A stretch of 49,101 bases of DNA from a virus. Within the stretch, counting starts at the first letter, position 1. The number at the start of each line of letters is the position of its first letter. The notes beneath the pieces were generated by a model that saw only the letters and a program-made list of their open reading frames with translations, did no database searches and was not told where the DNA came from. This document shows, piece by piece, positions 2,084 through 28,273 of this stretch. The DNA lies in UHGV virus genome UHGV-0209788. The stretch is one strand, 5' to 3'. The position numbers were made by a program, and so were the translations under genes.

Positions 2084-4588
2084 ATGTCTGAAAAAGCAGG
2101 CGAGATTTATTACGACATCGAGGCCGATGTTTCTGGCTTGCTCAAGGCGCAGGGAAAGGCCAATAAGTCGCTCGACTCCATCGGCAACTCGGCGACCAAT
2201 GCAGCCAAAAAGATGGATGAGTTGCAGACGAATATCAACCGCGTCGCCGGGGCAATTGCCGCCTCACTCGTTGTTGACTGGGGTAAGGCATTCCTCGTTG
2301 CTGCTGACAACATGAGCCAGCTCAACGCGCGTATAGAGAGGCTAACTGGTAGCGCAACAACAGCCTCGCAGACGATGCAGAATCTGATCCGTATCAGTTC
2401 GGCAACGGGTGGTTCGCTACAGGATACAGCGAAGCTGTGGGAGACTCTCAGCACTGCGTTGCGCGATACCGGAGCGACAAACGGCCAGATCATCCAGCTC
2501 ACCGAAACACTTCAGAAAATAGGTCGCATTGGCGGATCCTCGACAGAAGAAATGGCGAATGCTCTTCGTCAGTTCGGCCAGTCAATTTCATCCGGTACTG
2601 TCCGGGCTGAGGAGTTCAACTCCATCCTTGAGCAAATTCCTGAACTGGCGCGGCAGATCGCCGCCGGGATGGGCGTAAGTATCGGCGAACTGCGTCAACT
2701 GATGTTGGACGGGAAACTGACAGCAGAAGATGCGCTTAATGCCATCCAGAAACAAACCGGCTCAGTAAATGCAGAGTTCGAAAAACTTCCTCGCACTCTG
2801 GCTCAAGCCAATACCGCGCTGACAAACTCATTCCTGTCGATGATTGACTCTGTTAACCAGGCGACAGGCGCAAGCACAGGACTGGTTGCGGTTATCGACT
2901 CGATGACGGCTGCTCTCGACAGGCTGGTGGGGAAGGCAATCTCAGCGGATGCTCAGATATCGGATCTGAACAGCACCGCTGAAATGTTTACCCGCCGCGC
3001 GCGCACCTGGTCATGGCTTGGGCTTGATGGTTGGGAGGCGCAAAACAAAGCGCTGGCCGGGCTAAGCAATAAAGCCGCCATGCTGGTTGGCGACCTGGCC
3101 GCTGTTTCCAAAGCATCACAGACCGCGGCAAACACAAAACCGATCGAGATAAAGGCTGTTGCTGGTACAGGCAAAAAGAAAAAGACTCAGGCCGAAAAGG
3201 AAGCAGAAAAATATGCTAAGGCGCAGCAGACCGTTAACGAAAAGCTGGAAGAGCTTAGACAGAAGGCGCAACTTTCCGCAGGAAGCTTGGGTGAGTTGTC
3301 TCGTGCGCAAGCTGTTCTGAATGCTCAGCAGTCACTCGGTAGCGCTGCAACTCAAGCACAGATTAAAGAGGCTGGAGAATACGCCGCCAAAGCATGGGAT
3401 GCAGCAGCGGCAGCCAGAGGGGTAACTGAAGCACTTAAGGCAATCCCTTTGCAGGCGGAGAATAAATCCTACGCCGAATCCATGCAAAATCTGAAGGCCG
3501 CACTGAACGCTGGGAAAATAGATCTCAAGGAGTATAACGCTGCCACGGAGAAAATGGCGCTCGAGCACCAGAATAACCTCGCCAAGATTAACGCCCAGGC
3601 CACAGTCAATCCGGTAGCTTCTGCCCGAGCCGAAGTTGACCCGGTACAGCAACTGGTGAACGAAAATAACCAGAAGTTAGCCCTGATGCAGCAATATCAG
3701 CAGCAGGAACAGGCGATACTCCAGCAAAGTTACCAAAAAGGGAAAATAAATTACGATCAGTTCGTTGCTGCAAAGGCAGCTACCGATGCCCAGTACCTTG
3801 CCTTAAAGACTGCGCAGGAAAACCAGTTCAATGAGCAGATGACAGCCGCTCAGTGGCAATTGCTCAGTCAACAAGGTCTTGGTTATGAAATGCTGACAAG
3901 CGCGGTGGATGCGTTTTCAGGTAATGCATCTAATGCGTTAACCGGGCTGATCACCGGAACGATGTCAGCGCAGGATGCTATGCGTTCGCTCGGGAATACG
4001 ATGCTGAACAGCGTGGTAAATGCGCTAGTCCAGGTTGGGGTTGAGGCCCTCAAAAACTTCATTATAGGGCAGACATTGGGCGCAGCAGCTACTGCTGCTG
4101 GAGCATCTCAGGCTGCAATCTTGGCTACAGCTTGGGCTCCTGCCGCCGCCATGGCGAGCCTCGCTTCATTTGGGGCCAACTCAGTTCCTGCCATGACAGG
4201 AATTGCTTCAACGGTAGGCCTGGCACAGGGCCTTGCTTTAACCGGTATGCGTTACAATGGCGGCCCGGTGAATGCAGGAGGTCTTTATCAGGTCGGTGAG
4301 CGAGGGAAACCTGAGATTTACCAGGCCAGTACCGGTAAGCAGTACATGATACCGGGCGACAACGGCAAGGTGATCAGCAATAAGGATATGCAGGGTGGGG
4401 GAGGCATCAACGTTGTCTTAAATGTTCAGAACTATAACGGTTCATCAATAGATGCGCAGGCCAGTCCTGACGGCAATGGCGGCGTGACTGTGGATTTAAT
4501 CGTCGCTGACCTGAACAACGGCGGGCCAATCAGTAACGCCATAACCAGCAACATGAACGTTAAACGCACGCCAAGAGGGCAGGGCTGA
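2084..4588 (+). CDS. Tail tape measure protein
   Basis: 835-aa alpha-helical Ala/Gln-rich protein in the lambda H position. The C-terminus (GGPISNAITSNMNVKRTPRGQG) is lambda-H-like. Confidence 0.9.
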   Translation: MSEKAGEIYYDIEADVSGLLKAQGKANKSLDSIGNSATNAAKKMDELQTNINRVAGAIAASLVVDWGKAFLVAADNMSQLNARIERLTGSATTASQTMQNLIRISSATGGSLQDTAKLWETLSTALRDTGATNGQIIQLTETLQKIGRIGGSSTEEMANALRQFGQSISSGTVRAEEFNSILEQIPELARQIAAGMGVSIGELRQLMLDGKLTAEDALNAIQKQTGSVNAEFEKLPRTLAQANTALTNSFLSMIDSVNQATGASTGLVAVIDSMTAALDRLVGKAISADAQISDLNSTAEMFTRRARTWSWLGLDGWEAQNKALAGLSNKAAMLVGDLAAVSKASQTAANTKPIEIKAVAGTGKKKKTQAEKEAEKYAKAQQTVNEKLEELRQKAQLSAGSLGELSRAQAVLNAQQSLGSAATQAQIKEAGEYAAKAWDAAAAARGVTEALKAIPLQAENKSYAESMQNLKAALNAGKIDLKEYNAATEKMALEHQNNLAKINAQATVNPVASARAEVDPVQQLVNENNQKLALMQQYQQQEQAILQQSYQKGKINYDQFVAAKAATDAQYLALKTAQENQFNEQMTAAQWQLLSQQGLGYEMLTSAVDAFSGNASNALTGLITGTMSAQDAMRSLGNTMLNSVVNALVQVGVEALKNFIIGQTLGAAATAAGASQAAILATAWAPAAAMASLASFGANSVPAMTGIASTVGLAQGLALTGMRYNGGPVNAGGLYQVGERGKPEIYQASTGKQYMIPGDNGKVISNKDMQGGGGINVVLNVQNYNGSSIDAQASPDGNGGVTVDLIVADLNNGGPISNAITSNMNVKRTPRGQG

Positions 4589-8456: not shown

Positions 8457-10916
8457 ATGGCCACTACACCTACTAATCTGCCAGTACCGAGTGAATCCCC
8501 GCATGATCTGAAGTTTAACGCAGGCAAGATTGATGAATTTGTCACGTCTATGGGGTGGACCTATACCGATCGCTTCGGTAAGAAGCACTACACTATTGAA
8601 GGCATTAATTACCTTGCCCAGCAGGCAATGGCAGCGTTCGGCTATGTGATCCTCACTGGCAAAACATTTACCACTGGCGCAACGATAAACAACCCGAACG
8701 AAGTTCTGCTGAATACAGCTGATGGGGAATACTACAAATGGACCGGTTCATTTGCAGGTGGTCCTAAAGTAGTTCCCGAAAACTCAACTCCGGCGAGTAC
8801 TGGTGGAATTGGCCCTGGTGCGTGGATTGGCGTCGGTGATTCTAGTTTGAGAGCTGCTCTTGCTCAAAATAAAGGATCTTCACTAGTAGGTTACGGCGAT
8901 CGCACCGTAGAAGATAAACTTAATGAGCGGAAAAGCCCTTTCGATTTTGAAGCAATAGGCAATGGTGAAGATGATGACACATTAGCACTTCAAAAATTTA
9001 TAGACGAAACTGATGGTGATCTTGATCTTGCTGGTGGCACATTTCTAATAAGTAAGAATTATGCGCTAGCTATTCAATATCCAAATGAAGCCGACTTTTC
9101 TGACGGTACTTATAACTACAGCCCATGCCTTGCATTGGTTGGAAAGAAGGGTATCAAAATTCATAATGGAACATTGCTGGTTAAGACGCATGGCCTTGAT
9201 GCGTTAAGCCTCATAGCCTGTGAGCATGTTACTGTTGATTTAACTATCAAGGGCCCGGGAGTCTTCCCTGCAATTGATACTACAACTGGGTATGCAGAGA
9301 AAGGAGAAGCCAGATTCGGGTACGATTCTGCTCTAGTTCTTGCACCAAACAATGCCCTTGATACCAGCGCATATACTGGTGGCGCATACGCTGGTGTTAC
9401 AGGTCAATTCCCTAAATACAATGCAGACGGTAGCCAAGCTTCAGGTTGGCAGAACACGTGGGGCAAGTTCCTTGGCGGCAACATCGGTAGCTGGGCTTGC
9501 GGTGTGAAGGTTCAACGTGCATGCCGTGGTATTCTTATCAATGACTGTGACATCTCTGGGTTTAACTTTGGTGCGGTAGGTATTGGCATCCGTAACACAG
9601 CAGCAGCCTATGGTGCAAGTGATTACACCACAGATGCAGATGTACCTGATGGCGTGATGGTTATTAACACACGTATTCGCAAGTGCTACAGTGCAGGCAT
9701 CTACGTCCTCTCTGGGTATCGCCTGAACTACATGGCGAATAACATCGAAGACATCGGACATCCTGATGGGGATGATGTACTGAACGCAAGTTACGACCCA
9801 GGCTACGGTATCACACATGGTCGAAACCGAAGAATCCGTAATGTAACAATTACAGAGAATATGATTCGTAACTGCCGCCGCAAGTGTATTGACTTCCATG
9901 GTGGAGGCCAGGCTATCATCGCAAACAATCATTGCCTGGAGCATGGGGTTGTAGGTATCTACGCTAAGTGTGGACCCGGTTGGGCACCCAACTATGAACC
10001 ATATAACCTGATTGTCGCTGATAACTATGTCCGTTCCCGTGATGTACCTGCCAGTGAAACTACAGGCCTACTGATCGGTGCTAAGTATACACGATGCATT
10101 GATGTTGGTGGTGGTGGCGAAGCCACGCAAGCCACATACCCAGACCCTTTTGTCAAGATACACAATAATTACTGTGAACTCCGTGCATACGATGGGGTAG
10201 CAATAAGCACAGGTGCTGGTGACGACAACTATGCCGTTTTCCAGGATATTGATATCAGCCACAATAGTGTTGTAATGAAGTGCAACACAGTCAACAATAC
10301 GACTGAGGGCATAGCTGTGAATGCTGGAGCGGAGGCTAACAAAGTTTACAGAGGTCAGCGCATACGTTTGGTGGGAAACAGCGTTAAGCAACTGAACAAC
10401 CTGTCGCTTAACTATCGTGTAATTGGATATAAAATTTCTGGAATTCCCAAATCAATCATCGCTCATGGAAATATTGTGGATTTAAACACATTAAACCAGG
10501 CGGGGTTGCTATCATCATTTGTTTTGGATGGAAGGACATATATATCATTTTCTGGAAACCAGGCATTAAGCATTGGTTCTCGTAGCACAATGTCAGCCTC
10601 AGACATAATTTTCTACGACAATACAAGAATCTCTATTCCAGCAGGATCGGCGTCAACTTCAATTCCAGCCAGCTTATTTAGAGGGGTTTGGCAGGCAACC
10701 ATTGCAGGATCTGGAGATGCATTTGGAGCAAGGCAGGTACAACTAGCTAACACAGGCACTACTGGCACATCGACAGATGTTGTGAGGTCATCTACGACAG
10801 GTGTTATCGCTAACATTGCGGTCGGACCATCTGGTGTTGTTATTCCAGCGATAACAAATCAAACAGATGTAACCATCAGTCTTAAACCTCTGGTTCAATA
10901 TGACTCAGTGCTATAA
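8457..10916 (+). CDS. Tailspike / tail fiber with right-handed beta-helix (pectate-lyase-like) polysaccharide depolymerase domain
   Basis: Conserved N-terminal anchor region. The central region has parallel beta-helix repeat signatures (NNIEDIGHPDGDD, GITHGRNRRIRNVTITENMIRNC, GGGQAIIANNHC). Adjacent to the gtr cassette. Confidence 0.75.
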   Translation: MATTPTNLPVPSESPHDLKFNAGKIDEFVTSMGWTYTDRFGKKHYTIEGINYLAQQAMAAFGYVILTGKTFTTGATINNPNEVLLNTADGEYYKWTGSFAGGPKVVPENSTPASTGGIGPGAWIGVGDSSLRAALAQNKGSSLVGYGDRTVEDKLNERKSPFDFEAIGNGEDDDTLALQKFIDETDGDLDLAGGTFLISKNYALAIQYPNEADFSDGTYNYSPCLALVGKKGIKIHNGTLLVKTHGLDALSLIACEHVTVDLTIKGPGVFPAIDTTTGYAEKGEARFGYDSALVLAPNNALDTSAYTGGAYAGVTGQFPKYNADGSQASGWQNTWGKFLGGNIGSWACGVKVQRACRGILINDCDISGFNFGAVGIGIRNTAAAYGASDYTTDADVPDGVMVINTRIRKCYSAGIYVLSGYRLNYMANNIEDIGHPDGDDVLNASYDPGYGITHGRNRRIRNVTITENMIRNCRRKCIDFHGGGQAIIANNHCLEHGVVGIYAKCGPGWAPNYEPYNLIVADNYVRSRDVPASETTGLLIGAKYTRCIDVGGGGEATQATYPDPFVKIHNNYCELRAYDGVAISTGAGDDNYAVFQDIDISHNSVVMKCNTVNNTTEGIAVNAGAEANKVYRGQRIRLVGNSVKQLNNLSLNYRVIGYKISGIPKSIIAHGNIVDLNTLNQAGLLSSFVLDGRTYISFSGNQALSIGSRSTMSASDIIFYDNTRISIPAGSASTSIPASLFRGVWQATIAGSGDAFGARQVQLANTGTTGTSTDVVRSSTTGVIANIAVGPSGVVIPAITNQTDVTISLKPLVQYDSVL

Positions 10917-10919
10917 ATA

Positions 10920-10947
10920 ATAACGCCCCTCTAAGGGGCGTTATTTT
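10920..10947. terminator. Bidirectional terminator between tailspike and gtrC
   Basis: Hairpin AACGCCCCT-ctaa-GGGGCGTT flanked by T/A runs on both strands. Confidence 0.6.
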
Positions 10948-12403
10948 ACATTCTATTTATATATATTCTGTACCCATCTTTGTATTTAATTAATTTAATA
11001 AGGCTATTGTTTTTCATAATCTCTCCATCTCCTTTAAACCTTTCATCTTTTGGTATAGGTGATGATATGCCATACTGTTTCATAAGGCTATACTTGAACC
11101 TGTAGTTTGCAAAGGCAGAACCTACAAGATATTGCGATACCGGAATAGCATCGTATGTTCTCTTGACAGAATCTGGATAAGACGGGAAGCCAGATATTAC
11201 TATCTTATCACCTGTTTTATAACCACATTCAATTAGGTTGTAGGCAATATTCTGAGCGACCACTCTGTCTATACGCTGATATATTTTGAAAGCATTCGAT
11301 ACTCCATATGCTTGGCTAAAATTGAAAGTAATAATTACCACAATCAATGATTTTGACAAAGCACCTAATTTACTCATCATTTCTACACCCTTTAGTAGTG
11401 CACAAAATGATAATCCAGCGGCTATCATCACTCTAGGCTCTACTATAGGGCTTTTCAAAACCAGATAAGGAGCAAATCCGAGAACTATTATTGCTACAAA
11501 TGCAAGCACTGAAAATGCAGTTATTTTATTTCTTTCTATTGATGAAATTACCAACATAATAATTATCAATGTTAACAAAATAATACTAGGAGCAAATGCG
11601 GTAACCTTGTAAAGCATATTTATAAACAATGAGAAATTATTTACAAATATCTTTAATCCATCAACTGAAAGTGGAATTAACTCAGAGTGAGTGTCCGTGT
11701 ATCCGGATGTATAGGAATCTCCATCAAAAAACACCAGCATCATTACTTTATAAAGCAAGAACGAAAAGAAAAGAGATGAAAATACCTTTAAGATTAAGTT
11801 AATAACATCATTTTTATTTTCATTGCAGCACCTCATAAAGCACATTAATGCAAGATAAGATAAAACGAATGGTATAGATGCCTGGTATATTGATATTGAA
11901 ATAAACCCAATCGCCACCGAACTAATCCAGCGGACAATACTTCTCTCTGCGCTCATCCTTGCCTGTAAAATAGCCCCGAGACAGGATAATGACATTATTA
12001 AAGAGTCAAACCTGAAATAAATATTACCAATGAATAAAGTTGAAGTCAGAGGTAGTAACATGCATGCTGCTTTAGCAATTGGGGATTTCAGGCTTAGCTC
12101 AACAGAGATAAGATACCCGCAAAAGATCATCACAAAGGCGCATAATATAATGGTAAGCGGGAAAACATCATATAAAACACCATCCCCAAAGAAATTTAAA
12201 CCTCCGCCAAACATGCTAATCGCAGCCATTATGACAGAGGAAAGAGGCCTCCCGTTACCCTCCCAAGCAGTAACTCCGGTATCAGTCCTAAGCCAATCAT
12301 CTACAACATAGTTGTTATTAATGATAAATGGCAATATGTATACAAATGATAGAGCCAGCGATATTAAAAATATAGACTTATCATTTTTCATATTTCTTAT
12401 CAT
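10946..12403 (-). CDS. gtrC: Serotype-specific O-antigen glucosyltransferase (GtrC-type polytopic membrane protein)
   Basis: 485-aa multi-TM protein, very AT-rich, directly downstream of gtrB. Typical variable third gene of gtr cassettes. Confidence 0.7.
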
Positions 12404-23197: not shown

Positions 23198-23560
23198 TCA
23201 ACGAGCTGTGATTGATTTGCTCTTGCGGTGACCGGCCGCATATATGGCCACATCTGGCAAGCACATCCCGCCTTCCAGCGGCTTATTCCAGAACTCGTTG
23301 CTATAGAGGATTGTTGCCCGCTCAATTTGCAGCTTGTATTCCCTGAGATTCCAGAATGCGTCCTGAGCCATAAACTTGAGAGGTTTTGCATCATCGATGC
23401 GCTTCGGTGTTTCGTGAGTGCCTTTGGCCTGAATCTGCGCACGACTGAGAGTAGGGCGGTGCATCTTCTCAGCGCTCACCGCAACTGCGCTCTGTAACGC
23501 TGCACGACGCTCACGGCGACGGCCTGATGCTGACCCATTGAATGCTGTTCTGCGTGTCAT
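23198..23560 (-). CDS. N: Antitermination protein N (P22 gp24-like)
   Basis: Arginine-rich motif GRRRERRAALQ, compared with lambda N TRRRERRAEKQ. C-terminus LPDVAIYAAGHRKSKSITAR is P22-N-like. Strong AGGAGG RBS. First gene after pL. Confidence 0.8.
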   Translation of the reverse strand: MTRRTAFNGSASGRRRERRAALQSAVAVSAEKMHRPTLSRAQIQAKGTHETPKRIDDAKPLKFMAQDAFWNLREYKLQIERATILYSNEFWNKPLEGGMCLPDVAIYAAGHRKSKSITAR

Positions 23561-23767
23561 GGTGACCTCCTGATGAACTTTGGTGGTGTGGGCGGTAACC
23601 AGCCGCACAAGTCAGGGCTTCTTCACGTTTACCCATTCTTGCTTGCCACACCCCAAAACATTCCAGTTAGTGCCGGGATATTTATCCGCGCCCGGCGCGC
23701 GCTCCCTTGCTTTCCACAGTCAAAGGAATGCCGTAGACTGATGAATCCACAGTCAAAAGGAGGTTTT

Positions 23768-24398: not shown

Positions 24399-24467
24399 GG
24401 ATAATCACATATTGTGTTTTATTGGTCAACACGAATTGTGATTAATGATGACAACAAAGCGTGTTGT
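24399..24467 (-). promoter_or_regulatory. pL promoter with OL operators
   Basis: Minus strand has -35 TTGACC (24429..24424), a 17-nt spacer, and -10 GATTAT (24406..24401). Operator near-palindromes tCACATATTGTGt (24405-24417), aCACGAATTGTGa (24429-24441) and ACAACAaagcgTGTTGT (24451-24467) share the half-site of the OR sites. Confidence 0.6.
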
Positions 24468-24539
24468 TGCTGATTTGAAAGGGAATTTATTTTTTTAAAT
24501 ACCAGTGCTACGCTTAAAAAAACAGCAGGAGGGATGTGC

Positions 24540-24737
24540 ATGGTTCTGGATGAAGAGCGTATAAGCATGAAAATTCAGGCGATGGGGCGGGCGGTCATGG
24601 AGTTGTCACTGGCTGATTTACCCATGACCCAGCAAAACATCATCGACAAGCTGAAGCAGTACCGGAAGGAAACAGGAAACGTGATAGGGAAGGGAGCTAA
24701 CAGGGATGCTGCGGAGTTGGTGAGGAAGGGGCAATAA
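24540..24737 (+). CDS. Small hypothetical protein
   Basis: AGGAGGG RBS spaced 7 nt from ATG 24540. Rightward gene between OL and the cargo gene. Confidence 0.45.
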   Translation: MVLDEERISMKIQAMGRAVMELSLADLPMTQQNIIDKLKQYRKETGNVIGKGANRDAAELVRKGQ

Positions 24738-24757
24738 AAAAGCCCGCACGGGCGGGC
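24736..24757 (-). terminator. Rho-independent terminator (second of tandem pair for leftward cI-side transcripts)
   Basis: Hairpin GCCCGC-acgg-GCGGGC with a T6 run on the minus strand. Confidence 0.55.
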
Positions 24758-24841
24758 AGGTAGTGTTGCGATAGTTATTGTTATCAGCTTCAGGCTGGAT
24801 AGTTATCGGCAGAATGGGGGATAGCTTTATGGGTGGGCAAT

Positions 24842-24864
24842 AAAAACCCGGCGCAGTGGCCGGG
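24842..24864 (-). terminator. Rho-independent terminator after the cargo gene
   Basis: Hairpin CCCGGC-gcagtg-GCCGGG with a T5 run on the minus strand, immediately after the stop at 24873. Confidence 0.6.
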
Positions 24865-24872
24865 TTGCGCCT

Positions 24873-25820
24873 TTATTTGAAGACTCTCTCAAGAGCGCTT
24901 TCATATTGTTCTTTTGTTTCGCACATGGATGCCATGCCGATAATTTTGCCAATGTGTCTACGTAGTGCTTTCACGCCCACATCAGAAAGGAACATATGGA
25001 TTTTGTCACCTCTCTTACCGTTTTCCTCGCGATTTTCCTTGGCGATATCGAGAATCTTGCCTTCGCTCTTTGCTAATGTTTCGTAGATATGCCTCTCAGT
25101 AAACCAGCGGAAATTTCCTGGATGTCCGCCTTTTTCTGGTTTTTTCAGTTCGTATAGTCGGTACCATTCATAGTAAAGCTCATCAGGGAATTCTTTTTCC
25201 CAAGCACGAGCTTCTTCTCGAACGTACATTTTGAAAGCTTCGATTACCGCCTGCGCCGCAGGCTCATAACCAGAAACGGCATATGCAACGCCGCGAATAC
25301 CAGATTTAGCAGAAGCATTCATAAGTCTTTGTGCGGCTTCTGCTGCTGCAATTCTATTAGCTGGCAAAACCCCTTTTTCTTTCGCCTTGACTAGGAGCTT
25401 TGCTATGTCTATTACTACACCGATGTCAAATCCATGCGCAATTGTCGAATTATTGGATCGCGCCTCTAATTGAAATTTAAGGGGTTTTTCTAATTTATCC
25501 TCTAAATCTGGATCGCGCATCTCGCTCATGAATGGAGCCGACATTAGTCTGTCTATATCGCGAGCAAGAGAGCCTATCTGGAGAAGTTGAGCTAATCCGG
25601 TCTTGGTTACAACTGGTGTTTTCAACTCATCGTTTAAAACATAACACTCGGCATCAATCCCAAACTGCTCTTTGAAATTTCCCATGTGAGTGGCTTTATA
25701 ACCCCAGCGGGCAATAGCTCCGCTCTTGGCTTGATCACTTCTTTGTTTTGCAGTGAGGGATTTAGCTCTAGCAACCCCGCCTTTTGCTTTTCCAGTTGGT
25801 TCTTTTTTATTTTCTGACAT
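24873..25820 (-). CDS. Unknown-function cargo protein in the cI-pL (rexAB-equivalent) slot
   Basis: 315 aa from ATG 25820. AT-rich, with its own promoter, and isolated by terminators on both sides. Basic N-terminus ...GGVARAKSLTAKQRSDQAKSGAIARWG. No catalytic motif recognised. Confidence 0.6.
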   Translation of the reverse strand: MSENKKEPTGKAKGGVARAKSLTAKQRSDQAKSGAIARWGYKATHMGNFKEQFGIDAECYVLNDELKTPVVTKTGLAQLLQIGSLARDIDRLMSAPFMSEMRDPDLEDKLEKPLKFQLEARSNNSTIAHGFDIGVVIDIAKLLVKAKEKGVLPANRIAAAEAAQRLMNASAKSGIRGVAYAVSGYEPAAQAVIEAFKMYVREEARAWEKEFPDELYYEWYRLYELKKPEKGGHPGNFRWFTERHIYETLAKSEGKILDIAKENREENGKRGDKIHMFLSDVGVKALRRHIGKIIGMASMCETKEQYESALERVFK

Positions 25821-25852
25821 TGTAAGCACTCTTGCTGTGAAATGTGCTTGCA

Positions 25853-25881
25853 TCATAATCACTGTGTAACCATACAAGCAA
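25853..25881 (-). promoter_or_regulatory. Sigma70-like promoter for the cargo gene
   Basis: Minus strand: -35 TTGCTT, 17-nt spacer, -10 TTATGA. An A/T-rich tract lies upstream. ATG about 26 nt downstream. Confidence 0.5.
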
Positions 25882-25918
25882 GAAATATTTTTATTTTTAT
25901 GCTTGCATTATTGCAGGC

Positions 25919-25944
25919 AAAAAAAAGGCCGCATCTCTGCGACC
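25919..25944 (-). terminator. Rho-independent terminator downstream of cI
   Basis: Hairpin GGTCGCA-gaga-TGCGGCC with a T8 run on the minus strand. Confidence 0.55.
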
Positions 25945-25958
25945 CATCAAGCAACCAT

Positions 25959-26600
25959 TCAAACCAGCCGCATCTTCGTCTCTACAGCAACACCGATAAT
26001 TCGACAGTTACCATTCACCGCTACCAATGGCCACTGTGGATTTAAACCCTTCAGGTACTTCTGCGCACCGTCGATCACTAACTTCTTAAATGTTGCCTCG
26101 TTCGAATCGGATAGCTTTGCTATTACCAGACTGCCGTTGATTGCCTCGCGCCCAGTATCGAAGAGGACAAAGGTTCCTTCTGGGATGCTAAGACCCACCG
26201 GTGCTGTCATTGAGTCACCATCAACCTGCAGCCAGAACGCCTCCCCCTGAATGTGAGCATCTGATTCAAGCCAAAGGTCGATATCTTTAAGGGTGTACGG
26301 CTCAACAGCTTCGCACCATGCTCCTGCCTGCACCTTGCTTATAACTGGGTATTTATCACCTGGCTTGTAAGGGCCTTTGTAGTCATCGCCAAAAAGCAGC
26401 TCGGCAGGCGCAACCCCCAGCGCCTTAGCTATTACAGTTGCATCATCAACGCTAACGCTCCTGGTGCCTGATTCGTAATTCCCTATGCGTGACTGCGAGG
26501 CCCACCCGCAAAGCTCTGCGAGAGCCTTTTGTGACAGCCCTTTATCTTCGCGAAGTCGCTTAATGCGGCCCGCTATATCTTCGATTCTATTCATTCTCAT
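25959..26600 (-). CDS. cI: CI-type prophage repressor (HTH_XRE plus S24 LexA-like peptidase)
   Basis: N-terminal HTH (LSQKALAELCGWASQSRIGNYESG). C-terminal S24 domain with GDSM serine and conserved Lys (ATFKKL). The start codon is essentially leaderless relative to the OR region, as for lambda pRM. Confidence 0.9.
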   Translation of the reverse strand: MRMNRIEDIAGRIKRLREDKGLSQKALAELCGWASQSRIGNYESGTRSVSVDDATVIAKALGVAPAELLFGDDYKGPYKPGDKYPVISKVQAGAWCEAVEPYTLKDIDLWLESDAHIQGEAFWLQVDGDSMTAPVGLSIPEGTFVLFDTGREAINGSLVIAKLSDSNEATFKKLVIDGAQKYLKGLNPQWPLVAVNGNCRIIGVAVETKMRLV

Positions 26601-26606
26601 TTTGTA

Positions 26607-26671
26607 TCACGCGCCGTGTTAAAAAGCTTTACACGAATTGTGTTGATTAATAATCACGAATTGTGTTTAAT
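26607..26671. promoter_or_regulatory. OR operator cluster with pR (and divergent pRM)
   Basis: Three near-palindromic sites: tCACGCGCCGTGt (26607-26619), aCACGAATTGTGt (26631-26643), tCACGAATTGTGt (26654-26666). pR has -35 TTGATT (26643-26648), a 17-nt spacer containing site 3, and -10 TTTAAT (26666-26671). Confidence 0.7.
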
Positions 26672-26919: not shown

Positions 26920-26949
26920 TTGGCGGCCCTAACCACGAAAGGGAAAGCA

Positions 26950-27495
26950 ATGCATTCACTTGCGTATCAACAAGGTAACAAATTTTCGCCAACGGCGATG
27001 ATTTACCAGAATCGCCGGGAGCCTGATTCCTCGGTGTTAAATATCGATGGGATCCGTGCAGCTGTTCGCGCCTGGGCAGCTGATTGCCGCAGTCGTGAAT
27101 TTGTCGCAGCGCTGATTGTTGAGGAGTGGCGAGCCACTGGCGGCACCGGTCTGGATATCCCCGCCGACTCGCACCGCCAGATGCAGAAGGTGTTCCGCTG
27201 GATTGATGGCGACACCGAATACGCCGCCAACAACATTCGCCAGCTGGCCCCGGCAATCATGGCCGTCCTGCCGCTGGAGTATCGAAACCGCCTGGCGCCA
27301 CAGAACGACACGATGTCGCTGATCGCATCCGCAATGAAAGAGTGTGCCGAAGCAAAGCAGGCCGTGCTGCTGGACGCTCCAGAGCATCAGAAGCTGAAAG
27401 AGGTAAGCGAGGGCATAGCGTCGCTGTTCCGCCTCATGCCGGAGCAGGTAGGGCCGTTGATGACTATGGTCACTTCGATGCTGGGGGTTATGTGA
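26950..27495 (+). CDS. CII-like regulator (YdaT/CP76-like by position and size)
   Basis: Immediately follows cro. About 180 aa. Start at ATG 26950, since the track ORF begins with TTG. Family assignment by synteny only. Confidence 0.45.
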   Translation: MHSLAYQQGNKFSPTAMIYQNRREPDSSVLNIDGIRAAVRAWAADCRSREFVAALIVEEWRATGGTGLDIPADSHRQMQKVFRWIDGDTEYAANNIRQLAPAIMAVLPLEYRNRLAPQNDTMSLIASAMKECAEAKQAVLLDAPEHQKLKEVSEGIASLFRLMPEQVGPLMTMVTSMLGVM

Positions 27496-27580
27496 GAACT
27501 ACAGAAATGGCGAAAGCCGCTCTGCGCGAACAGAACCGACTTTCTGGTGGAATTAATTGGATCAATTCACAGAGGCAATT

Positions 27581-28273
27581 ATGCATCTCGAGCCATTAAC
27601 AAAGCAAGTCGGCGTATTGAAGACTATGGATGTTCCAGCCGACTTCAGAATGGAAGGGTGGGTATACGTGTTAAGCAATCCATGTATGCCTGGCATCTAC
27701 AAAATTGGAATGACCACAACAAGCCCGGAAGTTCGAGCGCGAGAACTTTCATCAGCTACTGGTGTTCCTGCTCCATTCAAGGTTGAAGCGGCTTTCTACA
27801 GCCATTCTCCGCTCGAAGCTGAAAAAGAGATTCATGATGCTTTGTCGGAGTGGAGAGTAAACGAGTCTCGCGAATTTTTTCAGCTTGATTTGAAAGAAAT
27901 TATTCATGCGTGCTCTTGCAGCTGTGAATGCCAGGTCGGTGAAAAAGCTGAATATATAGCTATTTACCACGACTTCATCATTTTTGAGAGCCTCAGCAAA
28001 ATCAATATACCTGAACTTTTTAATGAGATTGGGATTAGCGTCTTCGGCGACAAGCTTGCAGCTGCTGAGCGATTAATTCGAATCGGTGCGGAAACTATTT
28101 TCAATATCCGCAGAACAAGCGGCGTTGTTATCGCTGTGCACGATTCAAATGCGTATGCGATCGAACCGGCTGATGAACAGGCGCTAAAAGAAGCCATGAA
28201 TGAATATCAGGCTTATAGAGAAGAGCTTGATAGACGTGGAATTTACGGCCCAGAACAACCAGTGGAGTTTTAA
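27581..28273 (+). CDS. T5orf172 (GIY-YIG-like) domain protein
   Basis: EGWVYVLSNPCMPGIYKIGMTTTSPEVRARELSSATGVPAPFKVEAAF...EAEKEIHDALSEWRVNESREFF matches the T5orf172 pattern. Somewhat AT-rich insertion between the cII-like and replication genes. C-terminal ~110 aa unassigned. Confidence 0.7.
   Translation: MHLEPLTKQVGVLKTMDVPADFRMEGWVYVLSNPCMPGIYKIGMTTTSPEVRARELSSATGVPAPFKVEAAFYSHSPLEAEKEIHDALSEWRVNESREFFQLDLKEIIHACSCSCECQVGEKAEYIAIYHDFIIFESLSKINIPELFNEIGISVFGDKLAAAERLIRIGAETIFNIRRTSGVVIAVHDSNAYAIEPADEQALKEAMNEYQAYREELDRRGIYGPEQPVEF

Follow-up and report, generated by a model that had tools for sequence, protein, structure and literature searches.

What does a single AT-rich gene do between cI and pL of a lambdoid prophage, and what controls it? 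In lambda and 933W this slot holds rexAB and stk, respectively, which are expressed in the lysogen and exclude other phages. The window, by which we mean the whole 49,101-nucleotide stretch of virus genome UHGV-0209788 that was analysed, carries in the same place one gene of the P63C family, set among the following features:

25959-26600, minus strand: cI repressor (HTH_3 and Peptidase_S24 domains), context of the P63C gene
24873..25820, minus strand: coding sequence of the 315-aa P63C-family protein (list of open reading frames, PF10546, phrog_2384)
24534-24737, plus strand: convergent 67-aa ORF with a PHROG match (phrog_3975), context
24430-24440: copy of the OL operator word CACGAATTGTG, with a two-mismatch copy at 24406-24416
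24429-24401, minus strand: pL-like promoter (TTGACC, 17 nt, GATTAT) within the pL/OL region 24401..24440

With cI on one side and the OL copies and pL-like promoter on the other, the gene lies in the cI-pL slot, as an earlier note on this DNA had proposed in calling the position rexAB-equivalent. The 315-aa minus-strand frame which that note had picked out is real. Its ATG at 25820 is backed by the homologue alignment, and the identical protein occurs in 764 blocks of the collection and, annotated as 'MULTISPECIES: P63C domain-containing protein [Enterobacter]', on 338 contigs. There is also a longer frame of 334 aa with a TTG start. The gene has a GC content of 43.6%, against 50.9% for cI, 54.7% for N and 51.9% for the window, and falls at the 5th percentile among 948-nt windows. 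The AT-richness reported relative to cI and N therefore stands, but N does not adjoin the gene as had been supposed: it lies at 23198-23608, and pL/OL, the 67-aa plus-strand ORF and two small ORFs come between. We considered the 67-aa ORF as a partner of the P63C gene and rejected it, as it accompanies other cargo or occurs without P63C in phi80, HK639, ENT1 and E. coli L6-21, and its product lacks the hairpin motif described below.

Where does the unit begin and end? The region contains 13 terminator-like sites where 4.3 are expected, and three of them frame the gene:

25945-25926, minus strand: terminator T0 after cI, hairpin GGGTCGCAGAGATGCGGCCT and a U run to about 25918 (dG -16.4 kcal/mol)
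24866-24845, minus strand: terminator T1, directly after the P63C stop codon (dG -17.8 kcal/mol)
24757-24742, minus strand: terminator T2, GCCCGCCCGTGCGGGC and a U run (dG -14.9 kcal/mol, z -3.25)

The terminator claimed after cI and the two claimed in tandem 3' of the gene were all recovered, and they belong to different units. T0 is the upstream boundary of a cassette and T1, which is bidirectional and also reads as a terminator on the plus strand, its downstream boundary; T2 abuts the 3' end of the plus-strand 67-aa ORF and is part of the phage backbone, outside the cassette. By blastn, the block 25912..24835 is shared as a unit with Cronobacter and the block 25944..24836 with Yersinia, and homology to both cassettes stops at 24835/24836. 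The corresponding cI genes of Cronobacter and Yersinia (L021, L022) match the window cI only in the last 26-38 nt; the T0 hairpin also stands 5' of P63C genes in Yersinia, Rahnella, Mixta and Salmonella phage ST104, and at least four different cI types are followed by the unaltered terminator-promoter-gene-terminator unit. In related prophages the stretch from the cI stop codon to T1 is filled by other cargo: in E. coli L6-21 the place is taken by phrog_6603 and DUF6932, with the same 27 nt at T1 standing behind them, and in phage ENT1 by about 0.75 kb of unrelated DNA, the flanks being shared and the P63C gene absent in both. The unit moves as a cassette. Its low GC content and the exchange of cargo at the same place in E. 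coli L6-21 and ENT1 bear out the suspicion that it was horizontally acquired, and its integrity behind at least four cI genes, together with a promoter conserved across phyla, agrees with the view that it is transcribed separately from cI. The cassette has a predicted promoter of its own, its own terminator and a deviant GC content, lies between two backbone genes and is absent from close relatives, like the morons known from HK97/HK022 comparisons as promoter-gene-terminator insertions in lambdoid phages. It differs from these in its extra front terminator, in a conserved multi-site putative operator and in being shared with IS1-family transposons across phyla.

The space between T0 and the start codon is densely occupied:

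25899..25908, minus strand: box 1, ATGCAAGCAT, with an exact TGCAAGCA at 25900-25907
25876..25885, minus strand: box 2, ATTCTTGCTT, matching ATGCTTGCAT at 8/10 positions and containing the -35 TTGCTT (25876-25881)
25857-25852, minus strand: -10 hexamer TATGAT after an 18-nt spacer from the -35 (5/6 match, homologue alignment)
25844..25853, minus strand: box 3, ATGCAAGCAC, with an exact TGCAAGCA at 25845-25852
25829-25833, minus strand: Shine-Dalgarno-like AAGAG, 5' of box 4 within 25821..25833
25821-25829, minus strand: box 4, GTGCTTACA, one mismatch, ending at the start codon (alignment, consensus)

Of the promoter that had been proposed here, the -35 TTGCTT at 25881-25876 holds, although it agrees with the consensus at only 3/6 positions, so that the promoter was not listed by a consensus scan; the proposed -10, TTATGA after 17 nt, gives way to the better TATGAT one base off, with its 18-nt spacer, and homologous cassettes have TATAAT or TAnnAT as their -10. 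The comparison with these cassettes speaks strongly for the promoter. As judged from sequence conservation, this promoter is embedded in a four-box element that is new here. The boxes (ATGC-AA/TT-GCAT) lie about 85, 63, 31 and 8 nt 5' of the start codon, where they overlap three elements, namely -35, +1 region and ribosome-binding site: in the family consensus box 2 also serves as the -35 (TTGCAT), box 3 abuts the -10 and spans the transcription start expected at roughly 25844-25846, and the consensus box 4, (G/A)TGCTTGCA, is followed directly by the TG of ATG. In the 260 nt before P63C genes, GCAAGCA/TGCTTGC heptamers reach a density of 10.7 per kb, compared with 0.18 per kb in the rest of those loci; at least two are present in 61 of 80 loci, from many phyla, and all four are exact in 36. 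Box order is fixed and spacings are narrow (21-24, 32-33 and 22-24 nt), while pairwise identity in the spacer from box 2 to box 3 is 0.28, equal to random, with the boxes and the TAnnAT -10 conserved around it. The boxes are kept in P22-like immI copies (54-60% amino acid identity), in ST104 orf23 (30%), and in Burkholderia, Stenotrophomonas and a Gordonia phage (28%), and the motif shows no enrichment elsewhere in the window. With repeated palindromic sites lying over the gene's own promoter and conserved together with the gene, the likeliest reading is that the four boxes form a putative self-operator for self-repression.

Could the boxes act instead as an RNA leader structure, with boxes 3 and 4 pairing and the ribosome-binding site hidden, or as the site of a host factor? 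Boxes 3/4 and 1/2 are inverted repeats with the potential for 7-8-bp hairpins, and box 4 falls between the Shine-Dalgarno sequence and ATG. Yet transcription is expected to start inside or after box 3, which would leave the leader without most of the 5' arm; the leader of the window folds like its shuffles (z -0.07), Rfam gives no match, the actual sequence, beyond complementarity, is kept in all four boxes across phyla, and the flanking pair lacks covariation, a C in box 3 being followed in box 4 by G in six loci and by A in six. An RNA element is thus unlikely. For a host factor, a single specificity from Actinobacteria to Acidobacteria would be unlikely too, and the boxes vanish together with an N-terminal motif of the protein, so we give this alternative as a whole a low probability.

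The protein itself, which the earlier note had been unable to assign, contains a catalogued domain and a second feature of interest near its N-terminus:

25704..25793, minus strand: codons 10-39, basic two-helix hairpin GKAKGGVARAKSLTAKQRSDQAKSGAIARW (AF2 helices 11-21 and 24-39)
24966..25232, minus strand: codons 197-285, P63C domain (Pfam), within an all-helical C-terminal region (about residues 150-315)

The Pfam P63C model (PF10546) scores 49.2 bits against a cutoff of 26.1 over residues 197-285 and is matched by 52/52 aligned homologues, and phrog_2384 aligns residues 7-314 with profile positions 4-322 of 338 (E 2.7e-81). The family, of about 2,800 clusters at 50% identity, is catalogued but uncharacterised. 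PF10546 is named after p63 of Myxococcus phage Mx8; the model spans residues 197-285 only and carries no function, whereas the layout of the whole protein, with a basic hairpin, an alpha/beta domain and a helical domain in about 315 aa, the four-box promoter and the transposon carriage are not in the literature or database descriptions that we found. The literature on the P63C domain/PF10546, on ISMhu11 or IS1-family passengers and on lambdoid defence hotspots gives no function for the family, and the protein has no relative in NCBIfam or in PDB sequence and fold searches and no component match in PADLOC-DB v2 at E<=1. Structure prediction with Foldseek, the check that had been suggested, gave Mx8 p63 as the best structural match among viral models; the PDB fold search yielded no relative. 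A PD-(D/E)xK or tyrosine-recombinase-like reading was rejected, as the ExK and DxxK positions are unconserved and fold support is absent. The product is a soluble single-gene protein of 35 kDa and pI 9.2, and its highest 19-residue Kyte-Doolittle mean, 1.53, indicates that it has no transmembrane segment. In its C-terminal two thirds the homologue alignment has 63 near-invariant columns, and many of these residues are polar, within the P63C domain too. Invariant residues include K172, Y180, K197, E203, R205, E208, E210, R221, H275, R287, Y306 and E307.

The N-terminus is basic, as had been noted (pI 10.7 over the first 40 residues), and we propose the hairpin of codons 10-39 as a candidate DNA-binding module. 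Hairpin and boxes occur together: all five homologues without the N-terminal motif (5/5) are without boxes (61/14/0/5, Fisher p 5e-4), and a clade from Acidobacteria combines a variant N-terminus with variant boxes. ST104 orf23 retains the boxes and a hairpin about 70% identical, the remaining protein being about 30% identical. Since phage cassettes contain the P63C gene only and the boxes vanish with the N-terminal motif, the box binder would be encoded in cis.

A different use of DNA binding would be that of a Bro/Ant/KilA-type developmental regulator, antirepressor-like, acting on its own or a neighbour's lysis-lysogeny switch. Below Mx8 p63, the viral Foldseek list consists of Bro-N, antirepressor, 'repressor domain' and KilA proteins, residues 41-80 form a beta-beta-beta-helix ending in ...GLAQLL.IG that by eye looks like Bro-N/KilA-N, and some copies of the gene lie in immI beside mnt-arc-ant. 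These Foldseek matches are weak, however (E 0.04-1, TM-scores 0.1-0.3), and a Pfam search of the 52 members brings up no Bro-N, KilA-N or ANT domain even at E<=10. The gene also has its own promoter and boxes and lies outside the Mnt/Arc and cI operators, and a constitutive antirepressor beside cI would destabilise lysogeny, yet the identical protein is found on 338 Enterobacter contigs. We consider such a role very improbable.

How does the same cassette reach distant phyla? Among distant homologues, about 40% travel as cargo in IS1-family transposons. In 31/80 loci the P63C gene lies inside or beside an IS1-family element, with a divergent IS1-family transposase about 135 nt upstream and the four boxes in between. 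Taking terminal inverted repeats GGTAGTGnnTCAG..., an IS1-type transposase and an 8-bp target duplication as the signs of IS1 cargo, we found complete elements of 2.2-3.8 kb, with inverted repeats GGTAGTGnnTCAGTTTGAAAT and 8-bp target duplications, in at least 16 environmental genomes (16-19 distant homologues). Around the window gene at 24873-25820 no IS1 terminal repeats were found, which rules out this copy as cargo of an IS1-family transposon. The transposon context provides no specific pointer to defence.

It does raise the question of whether P63C is a housekeeping regulator of mobile elements that sets the level of the IS1-family transposase through the boxes, as InsA does in IS1, with the phage copies hitch-hiking or co-opted and without effect on other phages. 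InsA has about 90 aa, and its binding sites are the terminal repeats of IS1. In IS1-family loci the boxes stand between the P63C gene and the transposase gene, but they are internal and unlike the terminal repeats (GGTAGTG...), and the protein has 315 aa. The divergent transposase in 31/80 loci and the 16 loci with complete elements speak for such a regulator, as does the finding of boxes only at the P63C promoter, which leaves no other visible regulon through such sites. Against it, 315 residues with 63 near-invariant columns are more than a repressor needs, the full-length gene is strongly conserved in phage cassettes without a transposase, and its positions by bstA, by sieA and behind cI are non-random. 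This makes a purely regulatory role rather unlikely.

The transposons also carry a second small gene. In 22/80 loci a convergent ORF of about 80 aa, which often overlaps the P63C stop codon by a few bases, has a C-terminus matching the P63C N-terminus; an HMM built from these small IS-borne ORFs alone matches the window hairpin (codons 10-39) at E 3.6e-7, and the PHROG profile also shows the hairpin motif common to small ORFs and P63C proteins. Might P63C then be a harmful protein in an addiction or toxin-like module, held down by tight self-repression and, on the transposons, also by the small convergent protein, which would work like an antitoxin, as co-repressor or competitor? The shared hairpin would fit, and the putative operator over the -35, the +1 region and the ribosome-binding site is like that of many toxin-antitoxin promoters. 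Neither the window nor any prophage locus, however, contains a hairpin-motif ORF other than P63C, which would make the phage cassette a lone toxin; a convergent arrangement is unusual for toxin-antitoxin pairs, and no toxin family is matched. We hold this possibility to be improbable.

In four different prophages of Cronobacter type the cassette comes immediately after bstA, and in Leminorella a BstA homologue lies a few kb upstream of the P63C gene. The gene adjoins sieA in the immI region of Salmonella P22-like prophages, sits in the repressor-integrase module of the actinophage Petra of Gordonia and adjoins the integrase in Burkholderia phage DC1. From these locations, a defence or exclusion role is plausible. 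Which known system would it resemble? It shares the slot between cI and OL/pL with rexAB and stk. Lambda rexAB comprises two genes, for a sensor and a membrane channel, that are transcribed together with cI, whereas P63C is one soluble protein encoded behind a terminator; exclusion of the RexAB type was rejected, the cassette having a single gene, no membrane protein and a terminator that cuts it off from cI. Stk of 933W is a Ser/Thr kinase, and P63C lacks a kinase or other enzyme signature. A closer parallel is BstA of BTP1, a single protein whose gene comes immediately after cI, ends in a Rho-independent terminator and presumably uses the cI promoter (PMC8585504). Both are single soluble proteins of about 250-310 aa (P63C 315), encoded after the prophage repressor in lambdoid or P22-like prophages, with a putative DNA-binding N-terminal part and a C-terminal part of unassigned chemistry; the P63C gene differs in that it comes after a terminator and has a conserved promoter and boxes to itself. 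The likeness is not one of descent that sequence comparison can detect: BLASTP gives E 1.4, hhalign of the 52- and 30-sequence alignments a probability of 0.3%, and Pfam finds neither the KilA-N nor the BstA_C domain, so that membership of the BstA family was rejected.

The explanation that we prefer, tentatively and at somewhat less than even confidence, is an autonomous accessory cassette, or moron, with a self-repressing P63C protein whose C-terminal activity serves in mobile-element conflict. The cassette would have entered a lambdoid prophage of Enterobacter type at the cI-pL slot, its sigma70 promoter having four near-palindromic ATGC(AA/TT)GCAT boxes built in that cover the -35, the start of transcription and the ribosome-binding site. 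With its basic N-terminal helical hairpin, and perhaps also the neighbouring alpha/beta domain, the protein would bind these boxes and so repress its own synthesis, which would give a low steady level in the lysogen, independent of pRM. The highly conserved helical C-terminal part, including the P63C domain, would carry the real activity, in a BstA-like layout of DNA-binding N-terminus and effector C-terminus; by position, this activity most likely serves mobile-element conflict, against other phages or elements, by exclusion or abortive infection.

A bolder and more doubtful extension is that full-length P63C proteins are an unrecognised and very widespread class of sequence-specific DNA-binding effectors, carried by temperate phages and IS1-family elements with a portable self-operator of four ATGC-WW-GCAT boxes and working as a single-gene anti-phage or anti-mobile-element system. 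If so, the 2.2-3.8-kb IS1 elements, with their small paralogous hairpin protein, would be minimal transposons that spread a defence or conflict gene between phyla.

The cI-pL slot has been a repeated source of exclusion systems, among them rexAB, stk and bstA, and the present analysis turns an unknown ORF in that slot into testable claims about a 10-bp box, a defined promoter and an N-terminal module. Tractable homologues exist in cultured phages, including ST104 orf23, SPN9CC, vB_EcoP-611R6 and gp34 of Gordonia phage Petra. The transposon-borne version, in which the P63C cassette crosses phyla on an IS1-type vehicle, bears on how accessory and possibly defensive genes spread. Should the defence reading fail, the cassette would still offer a portable candidate repressor-operator pair, apparently conserved from Actinobacteria to Proteobacteria. 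The P63C gene is, in either case, a widespread accessory of mobile elements, and one that may have an anti-phage function.

The P63C gene, a confirmed open reading frame (24873..25820, minus strand, 315 aa), occupies the cI-pL slot, held in lambda by rexAB, because cI and OR lie to its right and OL with a pL-like promoter to its left. The earlier note had placed it there, and this placement stands; N, which that note had described as flanking the gene, is not adjacent, and pL/OL, a 67-aa ORF and two small leftward ORFs lie between them.

Landmarks around the P63C gene
26632-26642 and 26655-26665: OR, two exact copies of CACGAATTGTG, beyond cI and followed by cro
25959-26600: cI repressor, HTH_3 and Peptidase_S24, right of the P63C gene
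25945-25926, minus strand: T0, terminator after cI, hairpin with U run, -16.4 kcal/mol
24866-24845, minus strand: T1, terminator after the P63C stop, hairpin with U run, -17.8 kcal/mol, a terminator on the plus strand too
24757-24742, minus strand: T2, second downstream terminator, hairpin with U run, -14.9 kcal/mol
24534-24737, plus strand: 67-aa ORF, phrog_3975, between pL/OL and the cassette, convergent with the P63C gene
24430-24440 (the CACGAATTGTG word) and 24406-24416 (two mismatches): OL operator copies, left of the P63C gene
24429-24401: pL-like promoter (TTGACC, 17 nt, GATTAT), overlapped by the operator word
23198-23608: N, Pfam N_peptide

The 67-aa ORF has 82-93% DNA identity in phi80, HK639 and ENT1, and its transcription may end at the bidirectional terminator 24845-24871.

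All three terminators that the earlier note had drawn around the gene were recovered on the minus strand as hairpins with U runs. The coding sequence is, as that note held, more AT-rich than cI and N (43.6% GC versus 50.9% and 54.7%; window, 51.9%), and lies at the 5th percentile among equal-sized windows. The proposed sigma70 promoter needed correction: its -35 TTGCTT (25881-25876) is in place, but the best -10 is TATGAT (25857-25852), one base from the proposed TTATGA, with an 18-nt spacer, and the -35 matches consensus at only 3/6 positions, which is why a simple promoter scan is silent on it. Judged from the window alone, the case for this promoter is moderate; conservation in homologues makes it convincing.

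The window has further low-GC regions. GC falls lowest, to 32.5%, in an island at 10946-12403 (minus strand), directly after an 819-aa tailspike-like gene (8457-10916); its product, a 485-aa multi-pass membrane protein bearing a GtrII glucosyltransferase domain, probably modifies the O-antigen for lysogenic conversion. GC is also below average (~42-47%) in the region of the plus-strand genes at 27557-28273 and 26920-27495, where a T5orf172/MUG113-domain protein is encoded ahead of the replication genes and next to a YdaT-like gene that takes the cII position. A second low-GC stretch (~42%) lies near the left end at 900-1700.

How mobile is the unit? The identical protein is encoded directly behind cI in six long contigs with at least four cI types (236, 213, 239 and 229 aa) and differing replication modules, and in two of the six, DNA homology to the window does not begin until 26-38 nt ahead of the cI stop codon. 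Cronobacter-type prophages carry a 78%-identical copy behind bstA (order cI, KilA-N/BstA_C, P63C), where the homologous DNA is exactly 25912..24835, from promoter through first terminator; in Yersinia the block is 25944..24836, upstream terminator included, and the copies in Rahnella, Mixta and Salmonella phage ST104 have the same hairpin in front of them. At the same position E. coli L6-21 has a phrog_6603 protein and a DUF6932 protein between the cI stop and the same 27-nt terminator, and phage ENT1 has ~0.75 kb of unrelated DNA. Since close relatives hold other cargo, the slot is a cargo hotspot, and the mobile unit comprises terminator, promoter, gene and terminator. These comparisons show that the cassette is insulated, holds one gene behind a conserved promoter and moves horizontally, which bears out the earlier view of acquired cargo; the flanking terminators and a promoter conserved across phyla likewise argue that the gene would be transcribed independently, as had been proposed.

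Two neighbouring arrangements deserve mention. In four Cronobacter-type loci (L006-L009; 4111-4872 and 5001-5945), bstA (KilA-N plus BstA_C, 253 aa) and the P63C cassette stand in tandem with identical spacing behind four different cI/cro/replication backgrounds, and appear to travel together. The E. coli L6-21 pair (L001 3282-4690; 310-aa phrog_6603 and 159-aa DUF6932 proteins), in the cI-terminator slot of an otherwise homologous prophage, is a candidate for another accessory or defence pair.

The earlier note could not assign the protein, yet it belongs to a family that is already catalogued, if uncharacterised: residues 197-285 match Pfam P63C (PF10546; 49.2 bits, cutoff 26.1) and the protein as a whole matches phrog_2384 (E 3e-81), two families listed as of unknown function. 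The exact protein is annotated 'MULTISPECIES: P63C domain-containing protein [Enterobacter]' and occurs on 338 contigs, and a profile search of 1.84 billion representatives returned 2,788 relatives at E<=1e-3, mostly full-length (310-350 aa). An alignment of 81 sequences drawn from many phyla has 63 columns with an identity of 95% or more, and many of these are polar positions in the C-terminal two thirds. The protein is soluble, lacks a transmembrane segment and has a pI of 9.2, rising to 10.7 over the first 40 residues, in keeping with the basic N-terminus noted earlier. Its AlphaFold model (pLDDT 79.8, pTM 0.68) has three parts.

Residues 11-39: basic two-helix hairpin
Residues 41-150: alpha/beta region
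Residues 154-314: all-helical region

Neither PADLOC nor NCBIfam matched the protein, PDB sequence and profile searches gave no meaningful match, and Foldseek found none in the PDB at E<=1e-3; among viral models its best match was Mx8 p63, followed only by weak matches to Bro-N, antirepressor and KilA proteins.

Upstream of enteric P63C genes, alignment revealed four copies of a 10-bp near-palindrome, ATGC(AA/TT)GCAT, which also stand before the copies in immI, although protein identity is only 54-60% there.

Boxes in the window
25899-25908: box 1
25876-25885: box 2, 8 of 10 positions
25844-25853: box 3
25821-29: box 4, one mismatch

We took a census of 80 loci, drawn from contigs at one genome per species and spread over Proteobacteria, Acidobacteriota, Myxococcota, Abditibacteriota, Firmicutes and others (40-47% protein identity). 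In the 260 nt preceding the gene, the heptamers GCAAGCA/TGCTTGC occur at 10.7 per kb, against 0.18 per kb in the remainder of these loci; 61 loci have at least two and 36 all four exactly, and no other cluster was found elsewhere in these loci or in the window. Order and orientation are fixed (AA, TT, AA, TT at about -85, -63, -31 and -8 from the start codon), with spacings of 21-24, 32-33 and 22-24 nt. The -35 (TTGCAT) is part of box 2, a TAnnAT -10 adjoins box 3, and box 4 sits between Shine-Dalgarno and ATG; pairwise identity in the box 2-3 spacer is random (0.28), against 0.57/0.80/-/-/0.62/0.86 in the -10 columns. The boxes also precede ST104 orf23, the P63C genes of Burkholderia phage Bups phi1 and a Stenotrophomonas prophage, and gp34 of Gordonia phage Petra, a protein only 28% identical. 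We found no description of these boxes in the searchable literature, and the conserved four-box promoter/operator appears to be new.

What reads the boxes? An RNA structure is disfavoured: transcription is expected to begin within box 3 or beyond it, shuffled sequences fold just as well as the leader, the conserved feature is box sequence and not pairing (the flanking pair shows no covariation), and Rfam has no match. A protein is the better candidate, most simply P63C itself, because the phage cassettes encode no other. All five homologues without the N-terminal hairpin also lack boxes (counts 61/14/0/5; Fisher p 5e-4, not corrected for phylogeny). ST104 orf23 (L002 3360-3520) keeps the boxes and, at ~70% identity, the hairpin, and the remainder of its protein is ~30% identical. 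In promoter, boxes, upstream terminator and hairpin it is nearly identical to the window, a pattern that suggests either a recombination junction within the gene or very uneven constraint along it. Its annotated start (3447) is placed ahead of the conserved box 4/ATG; the homologous start is at 3483. In an Acidobacteria clade whose N-terminus is distinct and longer, the boxes differ too (TACTTGCYCGGGCA ... GCAAGTA), so that operator and DNA-binding module look as if they co-vary; a third variant, GCTTGACA / ATGCTAAGCAT, occurs in two further loci (L049, L069) and phage DC1. In that clade (L044, L050, L051, L057, L066, L072, L074, L077, L090, L098) an inverted repeat, TATACTTGCYCGGGCA ... CTCGGGCAAGTATA, surrounds a TTGACT -35, and the N-terminus reads …SEAAKxLSxLGAxKGGEARA…ARAAIQARWEKAGK. 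At the level of sequence, these comparisons show that the palindromic element, with its several sites, co-varies with the P63C N-terminus. A protein bound over the -35, the +1 region and the RBS would be expected to repress the gene, and we infer with fair confidence that P63C binds its own boxes and represses itself. Such negative autoregulation would give the lysogen a buffered P63C level independent of pRM.

The gene also travels outside phages. In 31 of the 80 loci an IS1-family transposase gene (Pfam DDE_Tnp_IS1; NCBIfam IS1 match below cutoff) lies divergently ~135 nt upstream; both terminal inverted repeats (GGTAGTGnnTCAGTTTGAAAT) are present in 19 loci, 2.2-3.8 kb apart, with perfect 8-bp target-site duplications in 16. 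These elements come from Acidobacteriota, Alpha-, Beta-, Gamma- and Deltaproteobacteria, Abditibacteriota and others. Beside a single-ORF IS1-like transposase they carry a P63C gene of full length, preceded by its four-box promoter, and an ORF of ~80 aa convergent with it is often present as well.

P63C transposons: L029 5005-7521; L039 5036-7560; L033 777-3534; L047 3561-6255; L093 4553-7281; others
Convergent ~80-aa ORF, minus strand: L029 6972-7211; L039 6980-7231; L042 6969-7208

The searchable literature yielded no description of such a transposon, and this carriage appears to be new. It supports a rival reading in which P63C regulates its own transposable element. The convergent ORF, found 3' of the gene in 22 of 80 loci and often overlapping its stop codon by a few bases, ends in …AAVALGRLGGLKGGKARAxKLTxEERSEIAKKAAKARWKK, homologous to the P63C N-terminal hairpin; this small paralogue supports a further rival, a toxin-antitoxin-like module. 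It is absent from all phage copies, and the window has neither this ORF nor the GGTAGTGnnTCAGTTTGAAAT repeats.

Phage P63C genes always occupy lysogeny-associated accessory positions.

Window and ST104: behind cI
Cronobacter-type prophages: behind cI-bstA
Leminorella: a few kb downstream of a BstA homologue, beside an Ant homologue
P22-like prophages and phage vB_EcoP-611R6: between gp16/sieA and mnt-arc-ant
Gordonia phage Petra: in the repressor-integrase module
Burkholderia phage DC1: next to integrase

P63C shares layout and location with BstA but not homology, and we rejected family membership. In the window the gene is a lysogen-slot moron, and the slot downstream of cI has precedent as a hotspot (PMC8585504). 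This precedent and the company the gene keeps (the cI slot, bstA, sieA, the actinophage lysogeny module) hint that the conserved C-terminal part would act in mobile-element conflict, by exclusion or abortive infection. We consider it possible, and put it forward tentatively, that P63C forms a new conflict system of a single gene, carried on minimal transposons as well.
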